A stretch of DNA of 41,407 nt from a virus. The notes below the pieces were generated by a model. It had not been told where the DNA came from, ran no database searches, and saw only the letters and a list, made by a program, of their open reading frames with translations. The stretch is from the IMG/VR virus record IMGVR_UViG_3300048074_000118; one strand, written 5' to 3'. The position numbers were made by a program, and so were the translations under genes. Positions 3,775 to 41,407 of this stretch are shown here, piece after piece (position 1 is the first letter of the stretch; each line of letters starts with the position of its first letter).

Positions 3775-4461
3775 GGCGTTCCTTCCTCAAGATGGCGGGA
3801 AGAGCCGGTGGCTTGGGGCGCTGAGCCTTCGCCGCGTGCGGAGCCACGATGGTCCAGAGGAGCAACTGGTGGCGGTAGTCCTCGAGGGCCATGGCCTTCA
3901 CGTGTCTCCGGTAGGCGCGCAGCGCTTCTCTGAGTGGCCACCGGAGGACCCGCTGCGCGCGATCGTGGTCTCCGCCGGCGAGCTCCGCGACAAGCTCATC
4001 CCAGGCCCCGTAGCGGCGTGGGCCTACACGTTCGCGGGATGAGCCCCTTCTTCGGAGGACGTCGCGGAAGTCCCCGAGGAGCGCATCCCGAAGGGAAAAA
4101 ACTCGATCAAGAGGGAGAGGACGAGGCTGCGGATCTGCGCCTTGTCCTCCGGAGAACGCAAGGAGCCGAAGTGGCGGACGGTTTCCTGGGCGAGATCCGG
4201 CGTCCAGGTCTCCCCCGGCTCCTTGTCCCCCGCGTCGACGGGTTCGGGAACGAGCAGGCAGGCGAGCAGGTCGAGGACATGCTCGCTGACCAGCAGCTGC
4301 CGCAGGAGGCGGTCTGCGTAGGTGTCCGGCGCTTCCCCTTGCTCCATGCGGAAGTCGTTGAGGCCGGCCCGCTCGCAGAGGGCGTCGAAGCGCAGGTCGT
4401 GCTCGACCGTGCTCTCGCCGATGGCGACGAAAGCACGGCCGCCGAGAACGTGTCCGCTCAT
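3761..4461 (-). CDS. Tail assembly chaperone G-T fusion made by a -1 programmed frameshift
   Basis: After 'GAG TTT TTT CCC', the -1 frame reads '...SLRDALLGDFRDVLRRRGSS...AILRKERRDDT' and ends at 3761, overlapping the TMP start. This is the canonical siphovirus G/GT layout. Confidence 0.65.
4024..4461 (-). CDS. Tail assembly chaperone (G-like, 145 aa)
   Basis: Acidic small protein between the major tail protein and the TMP. ATGA overlap with the major tail gene stop. Contains the slippery site near its 3' end. Confidence 0.75.
   Translation of the reverse strand: MSGHVLGGRAFVAIGESTVEHDLRFDALCERAGLNDFRMEQGEAPDTYADRLLRQLLVSEHVLDLLACLLVPEPVDAGDKEPGETWTPDLAQETVRHFGSLRSPEDKAQIRSLVLSLLIEFFPFGMRSSGTSATSSEEGAHPANV
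4093..4102 (-). promoter_or_regulatory. -1 ribosomal frameshift slippery run (minus strand G TTT TTT CCC)
   Basis: Plus strand 'gggaaaaaac' at 4093-4102. The shifted frame stays open for about 110 codons. Confidence 0.6.
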
Positions 4462-5222
4462 CGCCGGATGATCCGGTAGTGAGGCTCGGTCGGATGGGTG
4501 TCGGCATCCGACTCGACCTTGCCCGTGAGCTGGAAGTTGGCGTAGTTGTCGCTGATGAGACCCACCGCGCTCTCCCCGGAGAGGGCCGCGCGCCAGACCA
4601 GCAGCGAGTGCTCGGGGCTGTCCGGGTTGTCGGAGACGTAGCGGAGAAGCGCCTTGATGCTGGAGGCCACCACGCCGCGGACCGCCGTCTTCGACTGCGT
4701 CTCGTAGGCGTAGTCGACAAGGATCTCCGCGTCGTCCGCGATCGCGCCACCGGGCACGATGTAGATCCGGCCCTCGACCGCGTCGACCGTGTAGTCGTCG
4801 GTGACGTCATAGGTCGTCCCGGCCGGATCCGAGGTCACCACCACCGACGAGATGCCCCGGTACGCGAGCCGGACGTAGCTGCCCTGCTGCACGTTGGCGT
4901 GCGCTTCGTCCGTGACCGACGCGCCGGTCTGGGTGTAGAGGCCCGCCTCCCCGAAGAGGGCCAGCGCGAGGTTCTCCGCGTTGAACTCGTCGAGGGTGAT
5001 GGAGATGTCGAGGTCGGCCGCGGTCACATCGGACCGCAACACCGCCCGAGCCGAATCGACGCTGGATCGCTTCTCGATGCGCTGCGTCGACGGCTTGATC
5101 TCGAACGCCGTGCAGTTGCCGACGAAGCGCTCGTTGCCGGATGCGGCGCCGCTGACGAAGCGATCGATGTAGAGGCGCCCACTTCCGAGAAGGACGTCAT
5201 TTGCCACAGGTTCGGTTGCCAT
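4458..5222 (-). CDS. Major tail (tube) protein (254 aa)
   Basis: Sits directly upstream of G/GT/TMP. AGGAG RBS. Sequence style of siphovirus tube proteins ('LLGSGRLYIDRF...'). Confidence 0.75.
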   Translation of the reverse strand: MATEPVANDVLLGSGRLYIDRFVSGAASGNERFVGNCTAFEIKPSTQRIEKRSSVDSARAVLRSDVTAADLDISITLDEFNAENLALALFGEAGLYTQTGASVTDEAHANVQQGSYVRLAYRGISSVVVTSDPAGTTYDVTDDYTVDAVEGRIYIVPGGAIADDAEILVDYAYETQSKTAVRGVVASSIKALLRYVSDNPDSPEHSLLVWRAALSGESAVGLISDNYANFQLTGKVESDADTHPTEPHYRIIRR

Positions 5223-5231
5223 CGTCTGCTC

Positions 5232-5711
5232 CTATGTCTTTCGCGACGGGTCATCCGCGCGTGTCTGGAACTGGTACTCGAAGGTCAGGGTCGCTCTGCA
5301 GTAATCGCAGTCGCTCTGGGCGTATTCGAATGCGAGCCCGGTACGATCCGGGGCTCGCTTGGCGAGGTTGGTCAGACTGCCGGCGGCGGCGAGGGCTCTG
5401 GCTGCCCACTCGATGCTCGGGTCCGCGGCGCTGTCCGCGGGGACGCTCGACGTCGCCTTGGTCAAGGTTTCGACCTTGATCACCACGGTGCTCTTGATCA
5501 CTGGGCCCCGGCTCGCCACCATCTGACCTTGGCGCGCCTCGGGGTGGATCGGCTCCGGCACTTCGCCTGCCTGGACGACCGTGTTGGCCGGAAGCTGAGC
5601 CGCGGTGGGGCTGTCGATCCTCGTGCGGATGAACACCGGGACGCCCGATGGACGGGCCGTGTTGAGCGCTAGGACGGCAGCGGTGACGATCTGCTCGCGG
5701 ATCGTGCTCAT
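5232..5711 (-). CDS. Tail terminator/tail completion-like protein (159 aa)
   Basis: Called by position between the head-tail joining gene and the major tail protein. ATGA-coupled to the upstream gene. Confidence 0.5.
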   Translation of the reverse strand: MSTIREQIVTAAVLALNTARPSGVPVFIRTRIDSPTAAQLPANTVVQAGEVPEPIHPEARQGQMVASRGPVIKSTVVIKVETLTKATSSVPADSAADPSIEWAARALAAAGSLTNLAKRAPDRTGLAFEYAQSDCDYCRATLTFEYQFQTRADDPSRKT

Positions 5712-6013
5712 GGCTTCCTCAGCACAAGCCGCGTCATAGCCCCGTCTCCGTAAGGCATGGCCTCGCGAACGATCCAGGAGACTGCGTCGACGGTGATTGA
5801 GGACCCGGAAGTGATCGCTGTCAGCACTCCGGTCTGGACGTGCACCGACTCTTCGCCGGCGACAACCGGCGGTGTGTCACCGCCGAAGATCTCTGTCGCC
5901 TCAGAGTCCCGCAGCCCGGTAGTGGATAGGCTCCCGAAGACTACGTCGACCGTAGCCCCGAGCGCCTTGAGATCGGCCAGGATTGCGGGAATGTCATCAC
6001 CACCGAGAACCAT
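5708..6013 (-). CDS. Head-tail joining/stopper-like protein (101 aa)
   Basis: Size and position in the neck module. No diagnostic motif recognised. Confidence 0.45.
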   Translation of the reverse strand: MVLGGDDIPAILADLKALGATVDVVFGSLSTTGLRDSEATEIFGGDTPPVVAGEESVHVQTGVLTAITSGSSITVDAVSWIVREAMPYGDGAMTRLVLRKP

Positions 6014-6016
6014 GGC

Positions 6017-6406
6017 TCAGGAGTACTTCTTGATGCCGATGAACTGGACGCCGTAGGGGAACGTCGGGGTGTCCGTTCCACCGAGGGTGCCGATCACCTT
6101 GATGTACTTCTTCACCGCGTTCATGTCGAGCGCCAGCGTCTGGACCCCGGCCACGGTCGTCACCTGCGTGAAGGCGGCCCCCGTGATGTCGGCGAAGGTG
6201 CCGTCCGAGGTTTCGCAGTGCTGGACCTTGACGTCAAGCGTCGGGTTCGTCCCGGCGGTCTTGGCGCCGGCGGTGAGCACGACGAGCGCGACCCCTTCGT
6301 AGGCGGTGACGTCGAAGGCGGTCCCGGTCAGGGTGGCGGTGCGAGAGAGCACCGCCTCGAGCTGGGTGAACACCGCGTGCGCGAGAGCGTTGATGAAAGC
6401 TGGCAC
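6017..6406 (-). CDS. Virion structural protein, beta-rich (129 aa); head decoration or neck candidate
   Basis: Strong AAGGAGG RBS and clean coding composition. Function is assigned by position only. Confidence 0.45.
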   Translation of the reverse strand: MPAFINALAHAVFTQLEAVLSRTATLTGTAFDVTAYEGVALVVLTAGAKTAGTNPTLDVKVQHCETSDGTFADITGAAFTQVTTVAGVQTLALDMNAVKKYIKVIGTLGGTDTPTFPYGVQFIGIKKYS

Positions 6407-6468
6407 GATCGTCCTCCTTGCGCTGTCCCCTGCCGGGCTTTACCGGCGGAGCAGCTGCCGTTCTCGAG

Positions 6469-6732
6469 CTACTTGCCGTCGCCCTTCGAGCCCTTGTCCG
6501 CACCCGCGCCGCCGGTCTTGCCGTCGCCGGCTTTCTTGGTCTCGGTGCCCTTGTTCTCCGCGGTGGTGGCCGGAACCTTCTCGATCACGGGCGTGACGAA
6601 CCCCTGGGCGATCTTGACCTTGGCCTCGCGCTCGGTGATGTCGAGACCGATGGTCAGAACCGTCCCGACCGCGAGATCAACGCCTCCGCCCTTGCAGTAG
6701 GCCGAAATCACCTTGACCTTGCTGAACTCCAT
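6469..6732 (-). CDS. Small structural-module protein with Lys/Gly-rich tail (87 aa)
   Basis: ATG at 6732 has a GGAGGGG RBS 6 nt upstream. The longer TTG start at 6747 is rejected. Confidence 0.55.
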   Translation of the reverse strand: MEFSKVKVISAYCKGGGVDLAVGTVLTIGLDITEREAKVKIAQGFVTPVIEKVPATTAENKGTETKKAGDGKTGGAGADKGSKGDGK

Positions 6733-6754
6733 CTGTTTCCCCTCCAACTCGTGA

Positions 6755-6794
6755 CCTCCCGAGAGGGCGGGAGGAGCCGAGTGCGCACCTCGGC
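6755..6794 (-). terminator. Two tandem GC-rich stem-loops just downstream of the capsid gene (attenuator/terminator candidate)
   Basis: CCTCCC(6755-6760)/GGGAGG(6769-6774) and GCCGAG(6776-6781)/CTCGGC(6789-6794). They lie 30 nt after the MCP stop at 6824. Confidence 0.4.
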
Positions 6795-6823
6795 CCCTCC
6801 CTCTTCGGGGGGTTTTGGTGTAC

Positions 6824-13995: not shown

Positions 13996-14510
13996 GCCCC
14001 GCCTACCTCGCCCGCGTCCAAGAGCGAATCGAAGGACTCATCGTCGAAGCTCAGAAGCCGGCGCTCGTTCTCCTCGCCGGCGCCGCTGACCAGGGTGTCG
14101 CCCTGCGGATCACCCGCACCGTCGACACCTGGGCGACCCAGGCAGCCTACTTCGCACAGGGACGGCAGGCGCTCGACCAGGTCAACGCGCTGCGCGCCGG
14201 CGTGGGCCTCGCCCCCATCACCGAGAGGCAGAATCGGTTCACCGTGACGAAGGCGCGCCCCGGCCGCAGCTGGCACAACTGGCGACGCGCTCTCGACGTC
14301 GTCCCCGTAGATGAGGCGACGTCCCCCGATCTTCGGGATCCCGACAACCCCCTCTGGAACGCGCCCTACTGGCCGGCGCTTGGCGAGCTCGGCGAGGCGC
14401 TGGGCTACGAGTGGGGCGGCCGCTGGGGGGACAACCCTCACTTCCAGTGGACTCACGGCGCCACTCTCGATGGGCTGCTCGCGCAGTTCCCCCAGGGGCT
14501 TCACCTATGA
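13992..14510 (+). CDS. Endolysin, peptidase M15 (VanY / L-alanyl-D-glutamate peptidase type, 172 aa)
   Basis: Zinc-ligand pattern 'SWHNWRRALDVVP ... WGGRWGDNPHFQW'. No signal peptide. Confidence 0.8.
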   Translation: MSPAYLARVQERIEGLIVEAQKPALVLLAGAADQGVALRITRTVDTWATQAAYFAQGRQALDQVNALRAGVGLAPITERQNRFTVTKARPGRSWHNWRRALDVVPVDEATSPDLRDPDNPLWNAPYWPALGELGEALGYEWGGRWGDNPHFQWTHGATLDGLLAQFPQGLHL

Positions 14511-15418
14511 GAACGCTCGTCGCCAGTGGAGGCGCCTTCAAGGGCGCCGTCCAGGTCGGGATGATCGACGGCCTCTGCGCAGCCGAATGGCTCCGCCAGC
14601 GGAATCCCCCGACGCGCATCCCCGGCTCCTGGGTCCTCCCGTGGCAGCTCTACCTCGGAGTCTCGACGGGGAGCCTGCAGGCTTCGATCGCCGCGTGCGG
14701 CCGCTACTCCGACGTCGAGAAGCTCAGGGCTCGCTGGGCAAGCCTTCAAGGGATCGGCGACATCATGAAGATGCGCGCCGGCGGTTGGCTTCGCCTCGTC
14801 CCCCTCGTCAAAGGCGGCTCGCTCTACTCCTTCGCCCCGCTCCGAAAGATCCTCGAGAAGGATCTCGCTGACGACGATCTGCTGCGGATCCGCCGCGCTG
14901 GCAACCGGTTCCTCTGCGGGTACACCGACATGGAGACCCTCACCTACAAGCTGGCGGACGATCGCAACACGAACATCCGGACCTGGATCGAAGCGAGCTG
15001 CTCGGTGCCCGGCTATCACGAGGGGGTCTTGGGCCGCTACTTCGACGGCGGGGTCCGTAACGTCACCCCCCTCGCGGACGCGATCCGCGCCGGCGCCACG
15101 AAGATCGATGTGCTCCTGGCTTCCCCCTTGAAGCCGGTCGTCAAGAACGTGCCGAGGACGGTGATCGGCCGGGTAGGGAGAGCGATCGACGGGCTCACAA
15201 ACGAGATCATGCGCGGCGATCTGCGCGAGGCGGCGCTGCGCAACCGCTATCCCCGCCCCGGCGATCGCCAGCTCGAGATCCGCGTCTTCATGCCGGAGAC
15301 GCCGGTCAACGACTCCTGGTCGCTCAAGCCCGGCGACTACGCGCGGATGTACCGCATCGGGTTCGGATTGGCCGCCCGACCACTCACCGTGGCTGAGGCG
15401 CTTGGAGAGGAGATCTGA
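14507..15418 (+). CDS. Patatin-like phospholipase (303 aa)
   Basis: Oxyanion 'SGGAFKG', nucleophile elbow 'GVSTGS' (GxSxG) and catalytic 'FDGGV' (DGG). ATGA-coupled to the endolysin. Confidence 0.8.
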   Translation: MRTLVASGGAFKGAVQVGMIDGLCAAEWLRQRNPPTRIPGSWVLPWQLYLGVSTGSLQASIAACGRYSDVEKLRARWASLQGIGDIMKMRAGGWLRLVPLVKGGSLYSFAPLRKILEKDLADDDLLRIRRAGNRFLCGYTDMETLTYKLADDRNTNIRTWIEASCSVPGYHEGVLGRYFDGGVRNVTPLADAIRAGATKIDVLLASPLKPVVKNVPRTVIGRVGRAIDGLTNEIMRGDLREAALRNRYPRPGDRQLEIRVFMPETPVNDSWSLKPGDYARMYRIGFGLAARPLTVAEALGEEI

Positions 15419-22516: not shown

Positions 22517-22762
22517 TCAGCTCCCTTGCGCCACCAGCGACGGAGCGGGAAAGGAGGGTTCCGAAGCCCGCCCCGCCGCCGTGGACGCGCGCTCAGCTTT
22601 CGCTCTGCGCTCCGTGTCGCGTCTGTCGAGCTCCGCCTTGGCGATCAGCCCGAGACACGCGAATGCCTTCACCAGGGGATCCGGGTCGTTGCCGAGGGTC
22701 TCCGCGGCGCTCGCCCACGCTTCGAGGTCGCACTTGCGCTCGCGGGCCAGGGCGGCAGTCAC
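22517..22762 (-). CDS. Small early protein downstream of cro (81 aa, GTG start)
   Basis: GTGA overlap with the Cro-like stop. Helical, charged sequence. Function unknown (CII-like by position only). Confidence 0.45.
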   Translation of the reverse strand: MTAALARERKCDLEAWASAAETLGNDPDPLVKAFACLGLIAKAELDRRDTERRAKAERASTAAGRASEPSFPAPSLVAQGS

Positions 22763-23055
22763 GCGGCCTTCCTCACCGGAAGGAGCTTTTCGGGGGCGAC
22801 GCCGTAGACATCGACGATCGCCCGCAGCGTCCGCCAGCTGGGAGAGGTCTTCCCCCGGAGCCAAGTCCGCACAGCCTGACCGGAGACCCCAATCGACTGC
22901 CCGAACTGGTCCGGGGTTAGCCCCAGCGCATCGAGAATCGGCCGGAGAACCGGCGCGAAGCTCTCGTCTCGAAGGCGTTCGCTTGTTGGGAGGTGCGGGT
23001 GACGCCTTAAATCTGCATTTTGTTGCCGTTGTCCCGGCTCATATCCTCGTGCCAT
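22759..23055 (-). CDS. cro: Cro-like HTH regulator (98 aa)
   Basis: HTH 'LTPDQFGQSIGVSGQAVRTWLRGKTSPS'. Divergent from the CI-like repressor. Confidence 0.7.
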   Translation of the reverse strand: MARGYEPGQRQQNADLRRHPHLPTSERLRDESFAPVLRPILDALGLTPDQFGQSIGVSGQAVRTWLRGKTSPSWRTLRAIVDVYGVAPEKLLPVRKAA

Positions 23056-23118
23056 GCGCGGATAATCGGCATTCTACTGCCTATCGTCAACATGTTTTTT
23101 CATTTCTCCGCATAACTC
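23056..23118. promoter_or_regulatory. CI/Cro divergent switch region with imperfect inverted repeat (operator candidate)
   Basis: AT-rich 63-nt spacer. GATAATCGGCA / TGCCTATC inverted repeat at 23061-23085. Confidence 0.5.
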
Positions 23119-23844
23119 ATGCTCTTTTCTGCTAACCTGCCGCGCATGGGGGACTTATCGGGGGGGCCCGTGCTAGCTGAACGGCTATACATTCTGCGGC
23201 ACTCAGCACGCCTGAGTCAGGAAGAGCTGGCGCGCAAATCGGGCATCAGCATCCGGCGGATTCACGACATCGAGAACGGCGCGAATCCGACGCTCGACAC
23301 GCTCCGGAAGCTGGCGTCAGGTCTGGGGATTTCACTCTCTGAATTGACTGGCGGGGAGCTACCACTTGAACCCATTCCCCCTCGCAGAGTCCCCGGCGTA
23401 ATGGCCCCATCCCCCGGGGCCTTCTACGTTTCCGATCGGACCCCGACTGGGGCGAAGCCGATTCCAGTCATCTCCTGGGCCTCCGCCGGCGACGGCCTCG
23501 AGTACACCGACCAGGGATACCCGCCGGGCGCCAGCGATGAGTGGATCGATCGGCCCGTGAACGTCCGCGATCGCCGCGCCTACGCGGTGCGCGTGGTCGG
23601 CGATTCGATGAGCCCGGTTATCCAGGCCGGCGATCTGGTCGTCCTCATCCACGACCAGGAGCCGTCCCCCCACGACATCGTGCTGGTGAAGCTCAAGTCG
23701 GGCGAGGTGTTCCTGAAGCTCCTGAGTCGGCACGATGGTCACTTCGTGCTAGTGTCCGCGAACCCCCTGTATCCCCCGTTGGTGGTCGCGCTCGACGAGC
23801 TGATGTTCCCCCCTCGCAAGGTGGCTGCGATTTTCAAGCGCTGA
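23119..23844 (+). CDS. cI: CI-type repressor: XRE HTH + S24 (LexA-like) autopeptidase (241 aa; alternative ATG at 23146)
   Basis: HTH 'LSQEELARKSGISIRRIHDIENG', candidate cleavage site 'SAGDG', catalytic 'VVGDSMSP' and a downstream Lys ('VLVKLKSGE'). Confidence 0.88.
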   Translation: MLFSANLPRMGDLSGGPVLAERLYILRHSARLSQEELARKSGISIRRIHDIENGANPTLDTLRKLASGLGISLSELTGGELPLEPIPPRRVPGVMAPSPGAFYVSDRTPTGAKPIPVISWASAGDGLEYTDQGYPPGASDEWIDRPVNVRDRRAYAVRVVGDSMSPVIQAGDLVVLIHDQEPSPHDIVLVKLKSGEVFLKLLSRHDGHFVLVSANPLYPPLVVALDELMFPPRKVAAIFKR

Positions 23845-23856
23845 GGAGAACCCTGT

Positions 23857-24747
23857 ATGAGTGGGAGTCTTCATGACCAAGATCCAGCTGCAGGTCGTCG
23901 TCGAATCGTGGCGGATCTCTCCCCCGAAGGTCCCTCAGAGCCTCCTGGCTCCGAGCACACCGATCACGAGTCATTCCGCCGCTTTTTCTCGAACCCACTC
24001 GTCGGCGTGATCGGCGCCGTAGCAAGCTTGTGCGGCGTAGCCCTCGCGATCTATTTCTACTCCATGTCCACAAACACTCGTGAGCTCACCTATATGGTCC
24101 ATCCAGTCAAGGCAGTTGTCGTGCGGGGTGGACAGACATCCAGACTATCGATCACGTTGGATGGTCGACCCGTCCAGGGCGACGTGACGACTGCACAAGT
24201 CGCATGCTGGAACGCTGGCCGGTCTTCGATTCGGAAGGACCAGATCCTTCGACCGGTCGTCCTTCGGACGAGCCCGCCAGTCCCAATTGTCGATGCCACG
24301 ATCCGCAAGGAAACGCGCCCCGATATCACCAGGCTGTGTTTGGACAAGAGCAACTTTCAGGGTGGAGAGGTCGGGGTCTCATGGAACATCATGGAGGGTA
24401 ACGATGGTGGAGTGATCCAACTCGTCTTCATTGGGGACACCAAGACCGAAGTCATTCTAGATGGGACCATTGAGGGTCAGCGTGCGGTTTCCAGAAGCAA
24501 GGGGAGGCCCCCCGATGGTGATCTCGTCTTGACAGTCGGGAGACGTAGATTCCTCACCTACTTTTTCTTCACAATGATCATCATTTCTGCCCTTAGTGCT
24601 ATCAGTAACATAATGCGTTTTGTCAGGCGGCGGAAGCAGCGGATAGGCCGCTTCGTGGCCGACATCGCAGCGGATGTCTTCCTCGCTGGAATCATAATTC
24701 TCTTCTATGTCCGCTCCCGTGCGTCAGGGCCGCCATTCGGATTCTGA
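23857..24747 (+). CDS. 3-TM membrane protein with beta-rich extracytoplasmic middle domain (296 aa)
   Basis: GAGGAGAA RBS 12 nt after the cI stop. TM segments 'LVGVIGAVASLCGVALAIYFY', 'FLTYFFFTMIIISALSAISNIM' and 'ADVFLAGIIILFYV'. Confidence 0.7.
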   Translation: MSGSLHDQDPAAGRRRIVADLSPEGPSEPPGSEHTDHESFRRFFSNPLVGVIGAVASLCGVALAIYFYSMSTNTRELTYMVHPVKAVVVRGGQTSRLSITLDGRPVQGDVTTAQVACWNAGRSSIRKDQILRPVVLRTSPPVPIVDATIRKETRPDITRLCLDKSNFQGGEVGVSWNIMEGNDGGVIQLVFIGDTKTEVILDGTIEGQRAVSRSKGRPPDGDLVLTVGRRRFLTYFFFTMIIISALSAISNIMRFVRRRKQRIGRFVADIAADVFLAGIIILFYVRSRASGPPFGF

Positions 24748-24801
24748 GGCAGCACCATCATGCTGATTCAGAGTACAGTCCCGATTCTAGAGAGGTGGAA
24801 T

Positions 24802-25023
24802 ATGTACTGTCCGAACTGCGGTTCCGTGGCAGAAGCCAAGCGCCACACCAAAGGTTCGTTCCTAGTCGAGTTGCTCCTCTGGCTCTGCTTCCTCGTCCCA
24901 GGGCTCATCTACTCAATCTGGAGGTTGACGACGCGCTCAACGGTCTGCGGAGTCTGCAAGAGTTCCGGCGTGATTCCTGAGAACTCGCCCAGGGCGAAGG
25001 AAGCCCTTGCCAAACCCCGATGA
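24802..25023 (+). CDS. Membrane zinc-ribbon protein, CxxC - hydrophobic - CxxC (LITAF-like layout, 73 aa; alternative ATG at 24760)
   Basis: 'MYCPNCGS...FLVELLLWLCFLVPGLIYSIW...CGVCKS'. GAGAGGTGG RBS. Confidence 0.65.
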   Translation: MYCPNCGSVAEAKRHTKGSFLVELLLWLCFLVPGLIYSIWRLTTRSTVCGVCKSSGVIPENSPRAKEALAKPR

Positions 25024-25625
25024 AGACCGACGACGTCCTCAACCCCGCCTTCACGGATGACCATTTCGTCGTCTGGCTCATACCAGGCTCGATCGCTCTC
25101 TTGCCGTGGGTGTTCGTCCTCCACCACTACGTCTCACTTTCACGTGCTTGGAGGGACCACGAGTGGATTCTGGGAATAGGATTCCTACTCGCCGCCTCTG
25201 GACTCGGAGCCCTTGTCGAGAGCTTTGGCGGGTGGATAGAGAGCGAGAACTATGACAAGAGACTCGAGACTGCGAGGGAAGGCCACACGGACGAGTGGTA
25301 CGAGTACCTGGTCACTGCCATCCCAGCCGACTTGGTTGTCCATCGCTATGTGCGTCACCGGGTCCGCCTGATGAAGTTCGAGATCAGCGTGGGCATTGCT
25401 AGTCCCGCCGCGCTCGTCGCATGCTGGTGGCTCCGAGGCTTGGACTTGGCCTTCAGCTGGCCCGGACTCGTCGTCCTGACGATCCTGGTGGGCGCGCTCT
25501 GCAGGTACCTATTCTGGGACGCCTTCAAGATCGCGGAGATCCTCTCGGACATCAGAATGCGGCTCCTGACGATCCATCGTCAGGCCGGCGCTGTGCCCCA
25601 GGTGCCCCCCGCGCGAAACCCTTAG
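25020..25625 (+). CDS. 4-TM integral membrane protein (201 aa)
   Basis: ATGA-coupled to the previous gene. Four hydrophobic helices, with a charged loop between TM2 and TM3. Confidence 0.65.
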   Translation: MKTDDVLNPAFTDDHFVVWLIPGSIALLPWVFVLHHYVSLSRAWRDHEWILGIGFLLAASGLGALVESFGGWIESENYDKRLETAREGHTDEWYEYLVTAIPADLVVHRYVRHRVRLMKFEISVGIASPAALVACWWLRGLDLAFSWPGLVVLTILVGALCRYLFWDAFKIAEILSDIRMRLLTIHRQAGAVPQVPPARNP

Positions 25626-25641
25626 AGAAAAGGAGCCGTAG

Positions 25642-26454
25642 ATGTCATCCATCCCCGCCAAGGTCGAGACTCGGATCAAGACTGAGGTGAAGCGCTACCG
25701 CGGCATCATCGAGTCAGCGAAACTCAGGGACGTCAATGAAGCCGACACCTCGATCATCGTGACCGGGGTTCTCGCGGATGTCCTCGGGTGGGATCGGTTC
25801 ACGGACGTCACCCGGGAGTACTGCGTCCGCAACACCTTCTGCGATCTCGCCGTCAAGGTGGACGGGAGGGTGAAGATCTTCGTCGAGGTCAAGGCGATCG
25901 GGCTGAGCCTCAAGGACACCCACCTACGGCAGGTGGTGGACTACGCCACGAAGGAGGGCGTGGACTGGGTCATCCTCACGAACGGTGCGATCTGGAAGGT
26001 CTTCAAGGTCCTCTACGAGAAGCCCATCAACCAGCAGGAGGTCTTCGAGGTCGACCTCGTCGACACCGCCCTTCGGCCGGCGGCCCTGGTCGACAAGCTC
26101 TACCTGATCACGAAGGAGGGCGTCTCGAAGTCCGCGATCGCCTCCTACCATGAGCAGAAGCAGGCCACCAGCCGGTTCATGATCGCAGCCACCCTGTTGT
26201 CCGAACCCGTCGTCGAGGCGCTCCGCCGGGAGATCCGCCGCGTGAGCGGCGGCGTCCGCCTCGAGGCCGACGAGCTGCAGGAGATCCTAAAGGCCGAGGT
26301 CCTCAAGCGTGAGGTCCTCGAAGGCGACCAGGCGAAGGAGGCCAGCGATCGGGTGAGGAGGGCCTCGGGGAAAGCACTCAAACGCGCGGCTCCGATTGAC
26401 CGGAGCGATGATGACAATGTTCAGGATCCGCCTCCGGAGAGCGGGAGTGCTTAG
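25642..26454 (+). CDS. PD-(D/E)xK nuclease, HsdR-N-terminal-like domain + C-terminal helical region (270 aa)
   Basis: Core 'FCDLAVKVDGRVKIFVEVKAIG' (D...E-x-K) followed by 'DYATKEGVDWVILTNGAIWKVF'. AAGGAG RBS. Confidence 0.7.
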   Translation: MSSIPAKVETRIKTEVKRYRGIIESAKLRDVNEADTSIIVTGVLADVLGWDRFTDVTREYCVRNTFCDLAVKVDGRVKIFVEVKAIGLSLKDTHLRQVVDYATKEGVDWVILTNGAIWKVFKVLYEKPINQQEVFEVDLVDTALRPAALVDKLYLITKEGVSKSAIASYHEQKQATSRFMIAATLLSEPVVEALRREIRRVSGGVRLEADELQEILKAEVLKREVLEGDQAKEASDRVRRASGKALKRAAPIDRSDDDNVQDPPPESGSA

Positions 26455-26959
26455 ATCCCTGACATTATGGTGGTCCGCCCTCGGGCACACGCGCAGGAGG
26501 CAACTGGCTCGAATCGCGAACGCCCCGCTCACAATCCTCCTCATCTCGGCGGTCTTGATTGTGGTCGGTCCGGAGTGCTACAGCGATCGTCAAGACCAGA
26601 ACCTCAGGAGGCGTGAACGTGATGCCGCGGTTCGGACCTTGGATCTAGAGATAGCGGAGCGCGTCAGACACCTGAACCTTGAATTTGCTGACAATCTGAG
26701 CATGTTCTATAACGGCCGTCTAAGTGAAGTGCCTGATGAGAGGAGCTTTCACGCGCTCTTCCCAGAGTACCAAGCTCGCTCCCTGCGCTCCCTTCTTCTT
26801 CAGCTCGAGGACCTGGTCGAAGGAAGAAGAACTGTTGAGATCAGGGCGGTGATAGACGCCACAGAGCGAATAGAGCTGCAGCCAAATGAAGCGGCGGACA
26901 CCTCCGCCGTGCGCACCTACTTGGAGCTACTCCGAGCCAAGTGGGGCTCGCAGGACTGA
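26408..26959 (+). CDS. Single-TM protein with helical soluble domain (about 183 aa; start uncertain: 26396/26408/26417)
   Basis: TM 'LTILLISAVLIVVG'. Overlaps the nuclease gene's 3' end and stops 11 nt before the integrase. Confidence 0.5.
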   Translation: MMTMFRIRLRRAGVLRSLTLWWSALGHTRRRQLARIANAPLTILLISAVLIVVGPECYSDRQDQNLRRRERDAAVRTLDLEIAERVRHLNLEFADNLSMFYNGRLSEVPDERSFHALFPEYQARSLRSLLLQLEDLVEGRRTVEIRAVIDATERIELQPNEAADTSAVRTYLELLRAKWGSQD

Positions 26960-26970
26960 GGGTGTCCGGC

Positions 26971-28494
26971 ATGCGCGCCGCCATCTACGCCCGTGTCTCC
27001 TCGCAACGTCAGGCGGAGAAGTGGAGCCTCGGCGCCCAGCGGAAGATCCTCGCCGAGCATGCGAATAAGCAGGGGTGGTCGAGTACCGTCTACGACGAGG
27101 GCGCTGCATCAGGCGAGACGATCGCCGATAGACCCGTCATGCGCCGACTGCTGGCCGACGTCGCCGGCGGCCGCGTGGATGTCATCCTGGTCATCGAATG
27201 GGAGCGCCTCTGCCGCGCCTCGGATCTCATCGACCTCGCCACGATCACCGGCGCGTGCCGACGTGCCGGCGTCCTGATCGCCACCCCCGAGCGGACCTTC
27301 GACCTGGCCAAGGCTGAGGACGACTTCGAGTCAGACCTCCGCGGGATCCTTGGGAAGCGCGAGAAGCGGAAGCTCCTGGAACGGTGCGCCCGCGGCCGGG
27401 CAGAGGCGAAGGACGCCGGCAAGTGGCTCGGCGGCCGCGCCCCCTGGGGCTACCGCTACGACAAGGAGGCTGGCACCCTGGCCATCATCAAGGGCCGAGA
27501 CCGGATCGTCCGGGAGGTCTTCGCCTCGGAGTTCGGAGGGCGGACCCTCCATGCGAACTACCGGGCCAAGGGCCTCGTCATCTCCGAGTACACCCTCCAC
27601 CGGATGCGCCGCAACCTAACCTACGCCGGCAAGATGAAGAATTCCAAAGGCCAGATCATCGACGGCGCTTGGCCGCCCATCGTGACCTGGCAGGAGTGGC
27701 AGGCCGCCCAGCCGGCGATCGAGGCGCGCCGCACGGGAAGGCCCTACCAGGCGAAGTATCTGCTGACCGGGCTCATGCGCTGCGCCGGCTGCGGGGGCCC
27801 GATCGTCAGCCGCCGGTGTGGGAGCTCCATGCAAGGCGACCGTCGCGCCAGCGAGTTGTCCTACATCTGCAAGGTCTGGCAGCGGAGGCTCGGCCCCTGT
27901 GCTGCGCCCGGGAGCATCGCGGGGTGGGCGGCCGAGATCCTGGTCCTCGATGCCTGGGAGCGCTTAGTCTCCGATCGGACCCTCCTGCGGACGGGCTACG
28001 ACGCTCTCCTGGCCCGCCAGAGCCCCGATCCCGAGGGGGGCCGCACCATCGCGTCGGAGGAGGCCCTCCGATCGCTGGCCCTGCGGCGCCACAGGCTCCT
28101 GGATGCCTTGGAGGAGGGAGTCGTGGCCCATTCTGACATCCGAGACCGGCTCCGAGAGATCGATGCCCAGACGGCCCTCCTGGAAGCGGAGAAGGACCGG
28201 GAGGCGCGCGCCAGGGCGAACTCGGCTGTCCTGCCCTGGCGAACCTTGCTCGCGCAGCTGCGGGCCTTCCCAGAGGCCCCCACCCCCCAGCGTCGACTCA
28301 TCCTGCGGGCCTTCGCTGAGTCGATGATCCTGGACTTCGGCGAGCGCCGCCTCGCGGTGAGCTGGCGCTTCGGCGAGCATGGGCCTATGCTGTACCGGCT
28401 TCCCAACCTCCACTCCCTGGTCAATCGGACGACCGGGACCGTCGAAGCGCAACGGCGTCTGCAGGCCTCCGTGGCTGACTACAGGGAACTGTAA
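26971..28494 (+). CDS. Large serine recombinase (phage integrase, 507 aa)
   Basis: 'MRAAIYARVSSQRQ' resolvase catalytic N-terminus, a recombinase domain ('GGRAPWGYRY'), a zinc-ribbon 'CAGCGGPIV...' and a coiled-coil C-terminus. Confidence 0.9.
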   Translation: MRAAIYARVSSQRQAEKWSLGAQRKILAEHANKQGWSSTVYDEGAASGETIADRPVMRRLLADVAGGRVDVILVIEWERLCRASDLIDLATITGACRRAGVLIATPERTFDLAKAEDDFESDLRGILGKREKRKLLERCARGRAEAKDAGKWLGGRAPWGYRYDKEAGTLAIIKGRDRIVREVFASEFGGRTLHANYRAKGLVISEYTLHRMRRNLTYAGKMKNSKGQIIDGAWPPIVTWQEWQAAQPAIEARRTGRPYQAKYLLTGLMRCAGCGGPIVSRRCGSSMQGDRRASELSYICKVWQRRLGPCAAPGSIAGWAAEILVLDAWERLVSDRTLLRTGYDALLARQSPDPEGGRTIASEEALRSLALRRHRLLDALEEGVVAHSDIRDRLREIDAQTALLEAEKDREARARANSAVLPWRTLLAQLRAFPEAPTPQRRLILRAFAESMILDFGERRLAVSWRFGEHGPMLYRLPNLHSLVNRTTGTVEAQRRLQASVADYREL

Positions 28495-28534
28495 GGCTCA
28501 TTGAGCGATCGCTCTATCCATCGCAGTCTGAGCC
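28495..28534. other. Candidate attP: 40-bp imperfect dyad next to the serine recombinase gene
   Basis: GGCTCA (28495-28500) / TGAGCC (28529-28534) at the ends. 13 of 20 arm positions are symmetric. Contains the perfect palindrome GAGCGATCGCTC (28503-28514). Confidence 0.3.
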
Positions 28535-28566: not shown

Positions 28567-28830
28567 CTACCGGTAGGCGTCGCGGCGGTAGCGAATGGCC
28601 AGGACGTCGACGATCCTTGCCCCGGCATCACAGTCGAAGAAGATCCGGTGGTCACCCTTTCGATATCTATAGAGTCCCTCGAACTTCCCGTACAGAGGTG
28701 CGACATGAGGGTTGTGCCAAGTTGGATCGCGCTCCAGATCCTTAAGCGCGTCCTCAACCAACTCCAGATCCTTGCCTTTCAAGGCCTCGTAGTACTTCAG
28801 GGCCTTCTTCTGGAGCCTGACCTCATACAC
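28567..28830 (-). CDS. relE: RelE/ParE-family type II toxin (87 aa)
   Basis: '...LERDPTWHNPHVAPLYGKFEGLYRYRKGDHRIFFDCDAGARIVDVLAIRYRRDAY' matches the RelE/StbE style ('YRxRxGDYRIIy'). Confidence 0.8.
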   Translation of the reverse strand: MYEVRLQKKALKYYEALKGKDLELVEDALKDLERDPTWHNPHVAPLYGKFEGLYRYRKGDHRIFFDCDAGARIVDVLAIRYRRDAYR

Positions 28831-28833
28831 GGT

Positions 28834-29154
28834 TCAATGTTTCCTGAGACTCCGCCATTCGACTCCGGGCGAAGACTCGGCCCGGGCTTCTACGATCTCT
28901 TCCAACAACCCTTCAAAGGATTCGGCATCCTGAGTTGCAGCGATTCCCGCCTCGAACTTCCGCGTGATCTCGTCCCTCAGCCTCTCTGACATATGAATCT
29001 CGAACCACGGAATGACCTTCACCATGGGTTCATCGCACGACGGATTGGTGCGACCAGCGTCCCCTGCAAGATCCTTCCTAGCCAAGATCCGATCAGTCAA
29101 CTGTCCATAGTCGGGCCCTTCGGGAGAGAACGTCTCTGCGGCTTTGTTAGTCAT
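28834..29154 (-). CDS. Putative antitoxin (106 aa)
   Basis: Directly upstream of relE (3-nt gap). ATGA-coupled to the gene before it. No family recognised. Confidence 0.5.
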   Translation of the reverse strand: MTNKAAETFSPEGPDYGQLTDRILARKDLAGDAGRTNPSCDEPMVKVIPWFEIHMSERLRDEITRKFEAGIAATQDAESFEGLLEEIVEARAESSPGVEWRSLRKH

Positions 29155-29564
29155 GGCTTGCTCTTCTCCACGTCGAATTTGGTGCTCCCTATGGACTCAC
29201 CTTGCCAAAGGACGTCAATTCGGTGTTGTCCCAGGGTCGTGACGGGAAACTGGGGGAACCTAAAGACCATTTCGGCTACAACCAAGGGGCTCTTCGCATG
29301 AATCTCCCCCTCAATCACCAACTTCTCGCCCCCCTCGTTCACGGGAGCGATCTCCAGTTTGAGACGAGTCTGCTCTTGCAGGTTCGTAATGGCCAGATAG
29401 ATGGCCATTCCCATATGGAGGGCTGGAACGGAGTTGACCCCGATCTTGCTGAAGATCCCTATAAGGGACCATTTGTTGGTTTCTTGTTCACGGATTGCGC
29501 GGTCACAGACCACGACCGCGACAACAACTGGTTTTCTGGGATTCGGCTTAGCCACGGTATTCAC
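29151..29564 (-). CDS. DUF6941-like beta-sandwich protein (137 aa, GTG start), first gene of the three-gene TA operon
   Basis: Pattern 'VVVCDRAIREQETNKWSLIGIFSKIGVNSVPA...' followed by alternating beta strands. The family assignment is from memory. Confidence 0.5.
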   Translation of the reverse strand: MNTVAKPNPRKPVVVAVVVCDRAIREQETNKWSLIGIFSKIGVNSVPALHMGMAIYLAITNLQEQTRLKLEIAPVNEGGEKLVIEGEIHAKSPLVVAEMVFRFPQFPVTTLGQHRIDVLWQGESIGSTKFDVEKSKP

Positions 29565-40900: not shown

Positions 40901-41407
40901 TCAGTCCAGCGCGACGGCCAGGAAGTCGTCGCGGTCGGTTCGGGTGATGTTGTGCAGGACCATCCAGTCGACGGCCCCGAGCCTCAACAAGGTCTCGGCG
41001 GTGAGCCCTTGGCCAGTCACAGCGGCAACGCCTCGCAGCTGACCAATCGTGTTCGGTGCGGCCGCGTTCAGCATCACTGGCCACAGCGCGTAGGAGCCGT
41101 CCAGATTGACATCGAGGAGACTCAGGCCGCAGCGATACGGCCAGACGACGTTCTTGTAACTCGCCGGCGTGCCGGACACGCCGTCGTTGCTGCTGGCCTC
41201 GAAAGGCAGCCAGACGCCGTCAAGCCCCCTGGCGGCAAGCTGTGAATCCTCCGGCTCAAGGGGCGAAGTCTCGCTCAGGGTATCCGCGTGCGTCGGCATC
41301 CGATGATTGTCTGTCGTGTTGGACCAGCGATAGGACGTGCTCTCCAGGGTCGGCGGAGCTTCGGTCAGAGCCAGGGAAGCACCCAGGGCCAACGGATAGG
41401 GCCACTG
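40901..41407 (-). CDS. C-terminal part of the wrap-around 531-aa tail protein (stop TGA at 40903..40901)
   Basis: The ORF track shows only a TTG-initiated 163-aa piece. The frame stays open to the window end and joins 1..1216 through the 127-nt overlap. Confidence 0.8.
   Translation of the reverse strand, partial: QWPYPLALGASLALTEAPPTLESTSYRWSNTTDNHRMPTHADTLSETSPLEPEDSQLAARGLDGVWLPFEASSNDGVSGTPASYKNVVWPYRCGLSLLDVNLDGSYALWPVMLNAAAPNTIGQLRGVAAVTGQGLTAETLLRLGAVDWMVLHNITRTDRDDFLAVALD
41281..41407. repeat. Terminal direct repeat, right copy (identical to 1..127)
   Basis: Same comparison. The repeat lies inside a coding frame, which argues for an assembly overlap of a circular molecule. Confidence 0.97.

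Follow-up and report, generated by a model that had tools for sequence, protein, structure and literature searches.

Do five genes that lie side by side in the lysogeny block of a temperate phage act together against other phages, or have they come to share a place independently of one another? The question is raised by IMG/VR virus record IMGVR_UViG_3300048074_000118, a stretch of 41,407 nt (the window). Five co-oriented open reading frames (ORFs) on its + strand, here called g1 to g5, occupy positions 23857-26959 between the genes of an S24-type CI repressor (cI) and a serine integrase (int). While g4 encodes a PD-(D/E)xK nuclease, the other four encode membrane proteins. An earlier note on this DNA had read the five as one undescribed prophage defence or exclusion system. 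The evidence points elsewhere: we put a probability of roughly 0.7 on 23857-26959 being a variable accessory ('moron') slot of the lysogeny operon that holds separately acquired, independent cassettes. Of the genes in this cI-int slot, only the g4 nuclease recurs.

The five genes do not keep company elsewhere. Loci of the nuclease were collected from viral contigs (80) and bacterial genomes (80), and a tblastn search of these 160 loci with g1, g2, g3 and g5 returned nothing besides the window's own copies; a profile of the g1 family likewise had zero matches among them. The reverse searches gave the same result. The nuclease profile had zero matches in 84 loci of g1 or g2, and the 81 g1 loci contained none of g2, g3, g4 and g5, nor any recurrent neighbour family. 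The 3 g2 loci were without other cluster genes, and the surroundings of the g2 homologue P0124 were unrelated to the cluster. For g3 and for g5, searches among 5.8e9 proteins, limited by their shared-word sensitivity, retrieved no homologue but the query itself, and both are ORFans (ORFs with no detected homologue); g3 also had no match in Pfam, PHROG, PADLOC or NCBIfam. Scans of IMG/VR found no close relatives of g1 and g3, and megablast of positions 23000-28500 against 50,697 GenBank phages found no near-identical phage.

The closest relatives of the phage, IMG/VR contigs L007 and L008, have the same frame with other contents. Their CI, nuclease and serine integrase share 60%, 87% and 55% amino acid identity, respectively, with those of the window, and only three blocks are alignable at the nucleotide level: the 3' part of cI (23455-23846, 75%), the nuclease gene (25642-26384, 83.6%), where the homology begins exactly at the start codon, and the 5' part of int (26971-27461, 76%). 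Between these blocks, L007 and L008 instead encode a 130-aa transmembrane (TM) protein, a 245-aa zinc-ribbon protein and a 161-aa protein, and their nuclease is followed by an SDH/ClpP-like serine protease (PF01972). This alternative cargo spans positions 4319-7909 of L007, and the same region is present in L002, L003 and L008. Across the phage lineage the scaffold cI...nuclease...int is kept, and unrelated genes occupy the stretches before and after the nuclease. Since homologues of g1, g2 and g4 were never found together, g3 and g5 are ORFans and the sister phages swap the partners of the nuclease, the five genes are not co-conserved, which is the finding that the earlier note had itself named as speaking against a single system. 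A false lead is thereby removed, because the supposed five-gene defence system would recur in no other genome.

Base composition agrees with a mosaic origin. The cluster is, as the earlier note had noticed, more AT-rich than the backbone (GC content of 0.594 for 23857-26959 vs 0.646 for the whole genome), and GC content at the third codon position (GC3) is heterogeneous within it, being 0.63 for g1, 0.72 for g2, 0.78 for g3 and 0.68 for g5, vs 0.87 for both g4 and int and ∼0.85-0.87 for the backbone.

What recurs in the slot is the nuclease. When the genes around the nuclease on viral contigs were clustered, repressors with helix-turn-helix (HTH) and S24 domains, encoded upstream on the same strand, and tyrosine integrases, encoded downstream, dominated, as confirmed with Pfam. 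Using profiles built from these neighbour clusters, we counted a co-oriented CI-type gene no more than 2.5 kb upstream at 33 of 81 viral loci (20/52 after de-duplication at 80%) and at 3 of 80 loci in bacterial genomes. A CI-type gene was directly adjacent to the nuclease at 21/81 viral loci (de-duplicated, 11/52) and at 0/80 bacterial loci, and a tyrosine integrase gene followed downstream at 25/81 (15/52) and 1/80 respectively. The de-duplicated viral loci range in GC content from 0.32 to 0.66. In bacterial genomes of many phyla, the nuclease is surrounded by housekeeping genes, such as gyrA and those of complex I, with no shared partner. The nuclease is thus self-sufficient and has two habitats: it stands alone in bacterial chromosomes, and it occupies the cI-int interval of temperate phages. 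A toxin-antitoxin-like pairing of CI with the nuclease was considered and rejected, because the bacterial copies have no HTH or S24 neighbour and because three genes part cI from the nuclease both here and in L007. In one group of viral contigs from isolate genomes (L017-L022 and L086, positions ∼4200-6800), a DprA-like gene (PF02481, 1e-50) precedes the nuclease, and a phosphoribosyltransferase-like gene and a 70-aa ORF are also conserved before it. Furthermore, two metagenome-assembled genomes (MAGs) each contain two nuclease copies on different contigs (L100/L110 and L106/L142), which fits carriage of the nuclease on mobile elements.

Judged from its sequence, g4 is a member of the solitary HSDR_N_2 / COG2810 / phrog_17239 family of PD-(D/E)xK nucleases. 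It scores 32.1 bits for Pfam HSDR_N_2 (PF13588; cut-off 25, E-value of 1.3e-7) and gives a full-length match to phrog_17239 (positions 1-257 of 259, 2.3e-87), and more than 1500 full-length homologues were retrieved. In a 42-sequence alignment of the family, residues D68, E82 and K84 of the D...E-V-K signature are invariant, as are R195 and K222-R223 in the C-terminal helical domain. The AlphaFold2 (AF2) model of g4 (mean confidence score, pLDDT, of 87) consists of an N-terminal PD-(D/E)xK core, a helical domain at residues 146-248 and a disordered tail. With Foldseek, the best matches of this model in PDB were the nuclease domains of DrdV, Hjc and HsdR, all of them weak (E ∼1e-3), and BFVD contributed one uncharacterised viral relative; for the C-terminal helical domain (∼100 aa), no structural match was found in either collection. 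A search of PDB sequences with the nuclease profile gave chance-level matches only (E ∼1). COG2810 and PF13588 were grouped with HsdR_N in a survey of PD-(D/E)XK enzymes (PMC3424549). It is by habit of annotation that COG2810 is called a 'type IV restriction endonuclease' (PMC3424549), and g4 shows no homology with characterised type IV enzymes: hallmarks such as Mrr_cat, McrB/McrC, GmrSD and SRA are absent, and Pfam gives HSDR_N_2 and HSDR_N only. In the literature searched, we found no functional study of the solitary HSDR_N_2 / PF13588 / COG2810 family.

Is g4 a defence gene? We rate the chances as even. If it is, g4 alone would cut incoming foreign DNA as an endonuclease, using its intact D...ExK site. 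No methyltransferase domain was detected among the products of the operon or of the remaining phage ORFs covered by the scan (some small ORFs lie outside it). The ParB-like protein of the phage was rejected as a methyltransferase partner of the nuclease, as it carries only ParB_N and HTH_ParB domains. Because g4 has no methyltransferase partner, it would have to spare the DNA of host and prophage by other means. It could, in a type IV-like manner, require a modification or a DNA structure that host and prophage lack; alternatively, it might be held inactive until infection through the conserved C-terminal helical domain. The testable candidate that is left is a single-gene nuclease family (phrog_17239 / COG2810) located behind the repressor in phages whose hosts span GC contents of 0.32-0.66.

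Among the alternatives, the one that survives best, though we still consider it unlikely, has the nuclease serve something other than immunity, either DNA metabolism to the advantage of host or prophage (repair or recombination, structure-specific cleavage) or its own spread as a selfish, homing-like endonuclease gene in permissive sites, the cI-int interval being one of them. Such a role would suit a family that is solitary among housekeeping genes of many phyla and highly conserved over its full length, and it would suit the Foldseek match to the Holliday-junction resolvase Hjc and the DprA-like gene that precedes the nuclease in one phage group; the preferred site in phages, however, is the lysogeny operon and not the replication or recombination module. 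Also in its favour, nucleotide similarity with the sister phage sets in precisely at the first codon of the nuclease, amid unrelated flanks, and single MAGs contain multiple copies. Yet the conserved parts of cI and int come close to it in similarity (75-76% nt), so that the nuclease is no strong outlier, neither an intein or intron context nor a disrupted target gene turned up, and the GC3 of g4 equals that of the phage backbone, which marks it as a long-term resident.

For the four membrane proteins, the domain descriptions of the earlier note hold, as they do for g4, when compared with Pfam, structural models and counts of hydrophobic helices. The g1 family, for which Pfam has no model, is large: 2575 cluster representatives were retrieved at E ≤ 1e-3, and metagenomes of soil, peat and sediment supplied most of them; a profile scan located it on 1 viral contig (IMG/VR) vs 140 metagenome stretches. 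Its members end in an invariant GPPFGF at the extreme C-terminus (alignment A2). The AF2 model of g1 (pLDDT 85) places a TM helix at residues 47-71 before a beta domain (77-205) and two C-terminal TM helices. Foldseek related it to beta-sandwiches of the cohesin, carbohydrate-binding module (CBM) and CLIPPER-like types (E ∼3e-4), i.e. to generic folds only, and g1 is a candidate surface or exclusion protein. In g2, two CxxC motifs flank a hydrophobic hairpin, and Pfam gives weak matches to Pmp3 and zf-LITAF-like. Ten homologues are 43-65% identical over a core of ∼65 aa within proteins of 155-298 aa. Elsewhere in bacteria, the g2-type module stands alone or is fused to DZR, TPR or GYF_2 domains, and it looks like a portable membrane anchor. 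In the homologues P0123-P0132, the module is located at either protein end. Hydrophobic helices number about four in g3 and one in g5. Each of g1, g2, g3 and g5 would act individually at the envelope, for which superinfection exclusion (Ltp/Sie, a block of DNA entry) is the best precedent. Our most reasonable guess for the slot as a whole is a role in defence or exclusion.

Such a role would call for expression in the lysogen. Here, the layout reported in the earlier note was reproduced in full: the ORF list and the Pfam assignments of the flanks agree on five co-oriented, tightly packed genes between CI and the serine recombinase, with 12 nt between cI and g1, 54 nt between g1 and g2 (12 nt if the long form of g2 is used), an ATGA overlap of g2 with g3, 16 nt between g3 and g4, an overlap of 44-59 nt between g4 and g5, and 11 nt between g5 and the int start codon (ATG at 26971). 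The start of g5 overlaps the variable tail of g4. Shine-Dalgarno-like motifs precede g1, the short form of g2, g4, g5 and int; for g2, the short form has the better motif and an N-terminus that agrees with its homologues. An independent assembly of the same element gave identical gene calls, with g5 at 182 aa. The rexAB-like, cI-codirectional position claimed for the cluster is likewise borne out, by the 12-nt gap after cI and by the lack of an intergenic terminator match. Specifically, a simple scan of the + strand from cI to int found no intergenic terminator-like site; the sole match falls within g1, and the number of matches equals that in shuffled sequence, which makes the scan weak evidence. 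From this position and the absence of terminators between the genes, expression of all five in the lysogen is plausible, and they would be read through from the cI promoter.

Might some of the genes nevertheless be coupled? One proposal is that a nuclease and the TM protein encoded downstream of it form a two-part, membrane-coupled module, represented by g5 here, by a TM/extracytoplasmic protein in the Thermus phage Riverbug and by phage IN93, for which a fusion of nuclease domain and TM segment has been reported (PMC11437467). Phage attack would then be sensed at the envelope, and the sensor would set a cytoplasmic nuclease to work. Because the TM partners would be analogous rather than homologous, co-occurrence tests based on homology would miss the pairing. 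We regard this module as improbable, more so than a nuclease without an immune function. In viral loci, TM proteins encoded immediately after the nuclease are only mildly enriched (9/30 vs a background of 15%). Homology of g5 with the product of Riverbug gene 56, which follows the nuclease there, was considered and rejected, as the two give no alignment whatever.

The proposal of the earlier note goes further, in that all five genes would form one undescribed system whose membrane proteins sense infection and control the nuclease, leading to abortive infection or exclusion. Co-orientation, very short gaps and two overlaps do suggest translational coupling within what appears to be a single transcription unit behind cI, but GC3 varies over the five genes, g3 and g5 are ORFans, and neither the 160 nuclease loci nor the 81 g1 loci revealed co-occurrence by tblastn or profiles. 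In the slot of the Thermus phages, too, membrane or extracytoplasmic proteins lie beside nucleases, a fusion has been reported for IN93, and the mild over-representation of TM proteins downstream of the nuclease would suit a five-gene system as well; the closest relatives, however, retain the nuclease and replace every partner, and both the nuclease and g1 are solitary in bacteria. Small zinc-ribbon or TM proteins are also encoded before the nuclease in L062 and L007. In L062, the ORF just upstream of the nuclease gave a weak phmmer match to g2, and a recurrence of g2 beside the nuclease was considered and rejected; the likeness is confined to a hydrophobic stretch and one CPxCG motif, there is no second CxxC, and this ORF encodes a generic zinc ribbon plus TM protein. 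Taken together, we judge a single five-gene system to be very improbable, slightly below the two-part module. Least probable of all is that the membrane genes are lysogenic-conversion cargo with no bearing on phage resistance (envelope, stress tolerance, adhesion) and with the nuclease as an independent neighbour, a view that can draw on the overwhelmingly bacterial g1 family (1 viral contig vs 140 metagenome stretches), its carbohydrate-binding or cohesin-like beta-sandwich ectodomain, the g2-type modules joined to TPR and GYF domains in bacteria and the other cargo of this phage (patatin-like phospholipase, ParE, DUF6941), and that is opposed by nothing direct except that the published membrane-protein precedents in this slot are exclusion proteins.

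Several points weigh against a slot of independent cassettes with a defence or exclusion role. Tight packing and overlaps (the ATGA of g2/g3, the 44 nt of g4/g5) are equally expected of a functional operon, and the lack of homologues of g3 and g5 limits what co-occurrence can tell about these two genes. Read-through from cI is deduced from geometry and a weak terminator scan. With regard to g4, its family is 45-50% identical across phyla over the full length, which is unusually high for a defence gene, and is frequently located among housekeeping genes, which together make a non-defence role in DNA metabolism possible; it also has neither detectable similarity to characterised type IV enzymes nor a modification-reader domain. 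We still favour separate cassettes, on the strength of the missing co-occurrence, the exchange of partners in the sister phages and the heterogeneous GC3. Of the earlier interpretation as defence or exclusion, the position, the plausible expression in the lysogen and the absence of a named system stand, and the single five-gene system falls for want of co-conservation. Whichever functions the cassettes have, a cI-nuclease-int scaffold with swappable flanks is a marker of a cargo hotspot and offers a route to harvest lysogen-expressed genes from metagenomic phages.

The slot belongs to a complete temperate phage, which encodes a tape measure protein, major head protein, portal, large terminase, tail genes, ParB and a DnaD-like loader, together with a divergent cro/cI pair. 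Positions 1-127 are repeated directly at 41281-41407 (127 bp), consistent with a circular assembly, and the genome is complete at ∼41.28 kb. The Cro-like gene runs divergently from cI, the pair constituting the lysis-lysogeny switch, and a sigma-70-like match on the - strand (23090-23062) lies inside the 63-bp intergenic region between them. The block thus has the layout cro <- / -> cI - cargo - int (Table 1). The gene of a patatin-like phospholipase, between the virion and replication genes, could be one more accessory or effector gene. Directly past the integrase, a ParE-family toxin gene, a small ORF upstream of it (a possible antitoxin) and the gene of a DUF6941 protein (together 28567-29564) lie in the lowest-GC stretch of the genome (∼0.55), in what looks like a second accessory island beside the expected attP position.

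Table 1. Coordinates of the lysogeny block and of further accessory genes in the window.
Feature	Position	Strand	Length (aa)	Assignment
Patatin-like phospholipase	14411-15418	+		Pfam PF01734 1e-19
Cro-like HTH regulator	22759-23055	-		Pfam HTH_31 1.5e-10, HTH_3 8e-8
CI/LexA-type repressor, first operon gene	23119-23844	+		Pfam Peptidase_S24 3e-18, HTH_3 4e-14; phrog_4 'transcriptional repressor' 5e-33
g1, 3-TM membrane protein, beta-sandwich ectodomain	23857-24747	+	296	ORF list, model
g2, small membrane zinc ribbon	24802-25023 (long form 24760-25023)	+	73 (long form 87)	
g3, ∼4-TM membrane protein, ORFan	25020-25625	+	201	GC by codon position 0.62/0.43/0.78, coding-like
g4, PD-(D/E)xK nuclease	25642-26454	+	270	PF13588, phrog_17239
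g5, single-TM protein with C-terminal helical domain, ORFan	26411/26396-26959	+	182/187	
Large serine integrase, last co-oriented gene	26971-28494	+		Pfam Resolvase 5e-22, Recombinase, Zn_ribbon_recom; phrog_95 'integrase' 7e-68
ParE-family toxin	28567-28830	-		
Small ORF	28834-29154	-		
DUF6941 protein	29151-29564	-		

How does the region compare with known systems? None of g1 to g5 matched PADLOC-DB v2.0.0 (2023 library) at E ≤ 0.1, and Pfam and NCBIfam detected no ATPase, methyltransferase, cyclase, TIR or Sir2 domain in the five proteins. The view that no hallmark places these genes in a named system is therefore upheld by PADLOC, Pfam and NCBIfam, and the Foldseek check that had been suggested alongside PADLOC gave only generic nuclease folds and one uncharacterised viral relative for g4, and generic beta-sandwich folds for g1. 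In phage lambda, rexA and rexB form a prophage abortive-infection pair that is co-transcribed with cI, and RexB is a multi-TM protein. Like rexAB, the cluster is located directly downstream of and co-directional with cI, and it includes a multi-TM member (g3). In contrast to rexAB, it comprises five genes including a nuclease, these would act separately, and the likeness seen is one of position. No RexA/RexB-type match was found in Pfam, PADLOC or PHROGs, a result that is only suggestive given that the presence of RexA/RexB models in each library is unconfirmed.

The Ltp protein of phage TP-J34 is a membrane-tethered exclusion protein whose gene belongs to the lysogeny module and is transcribed in the prophage (PMC3952083). 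As membrane proteins in a lysogeny-module position, g1, g2, g3 and g5 resemble Ltp/Sie, and their topology fits, but there is no sequence or profile similarity in Pfam and PHROGs. As for g4, it has HSDR_N_2 membership and the D...ExK motif in common with the type I (HsdR) and type IIL (DrdV/MmeI) nuclease domains; unlike these enzymes, it lacks a helicase/translocase, a methyltransferase and a specificity domain, and has a conserved helical domain of ∼100 aa instead.

The closest parallel to the arrangement as a whole was described in the Thermus phages IN93, Tsatsa and Riverbug, in which the region separating a LexA-like repressor from the integrase is variable and contains nucleases together with TM/extracytoplasmic proteins (PMC11437467). 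The authors of that study proposed, from predicted function only, that such regions are expressed in the lysogen for defence or exclusion, and that modules are transferred horizontally between unrelated phages. Riverbug gene 55, directly after the repressor, encodes a full-length homologue of g4 with 39% identity. This kind of arrangement has therefore been described before, whereas the earlier note had taken it for a candidate undescribed system. The Thermus phages differ from the present one in host and phage lineage, in having a tyrosine rather than a serine recombinase as integrase, and in membrane genes that are not homologous to those found here. In both cases, however, an S24-type repressor is located upstream and an integrase downstream, the genes are co-oriented, the content varies among relatives, and that content consists of a nuclease plus TM/extracytoplasmic proteins. 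By analogy with these phages, the region at 23857-26959 is a further example of a kind of variable defence/exclusion slot that has already been proposed.

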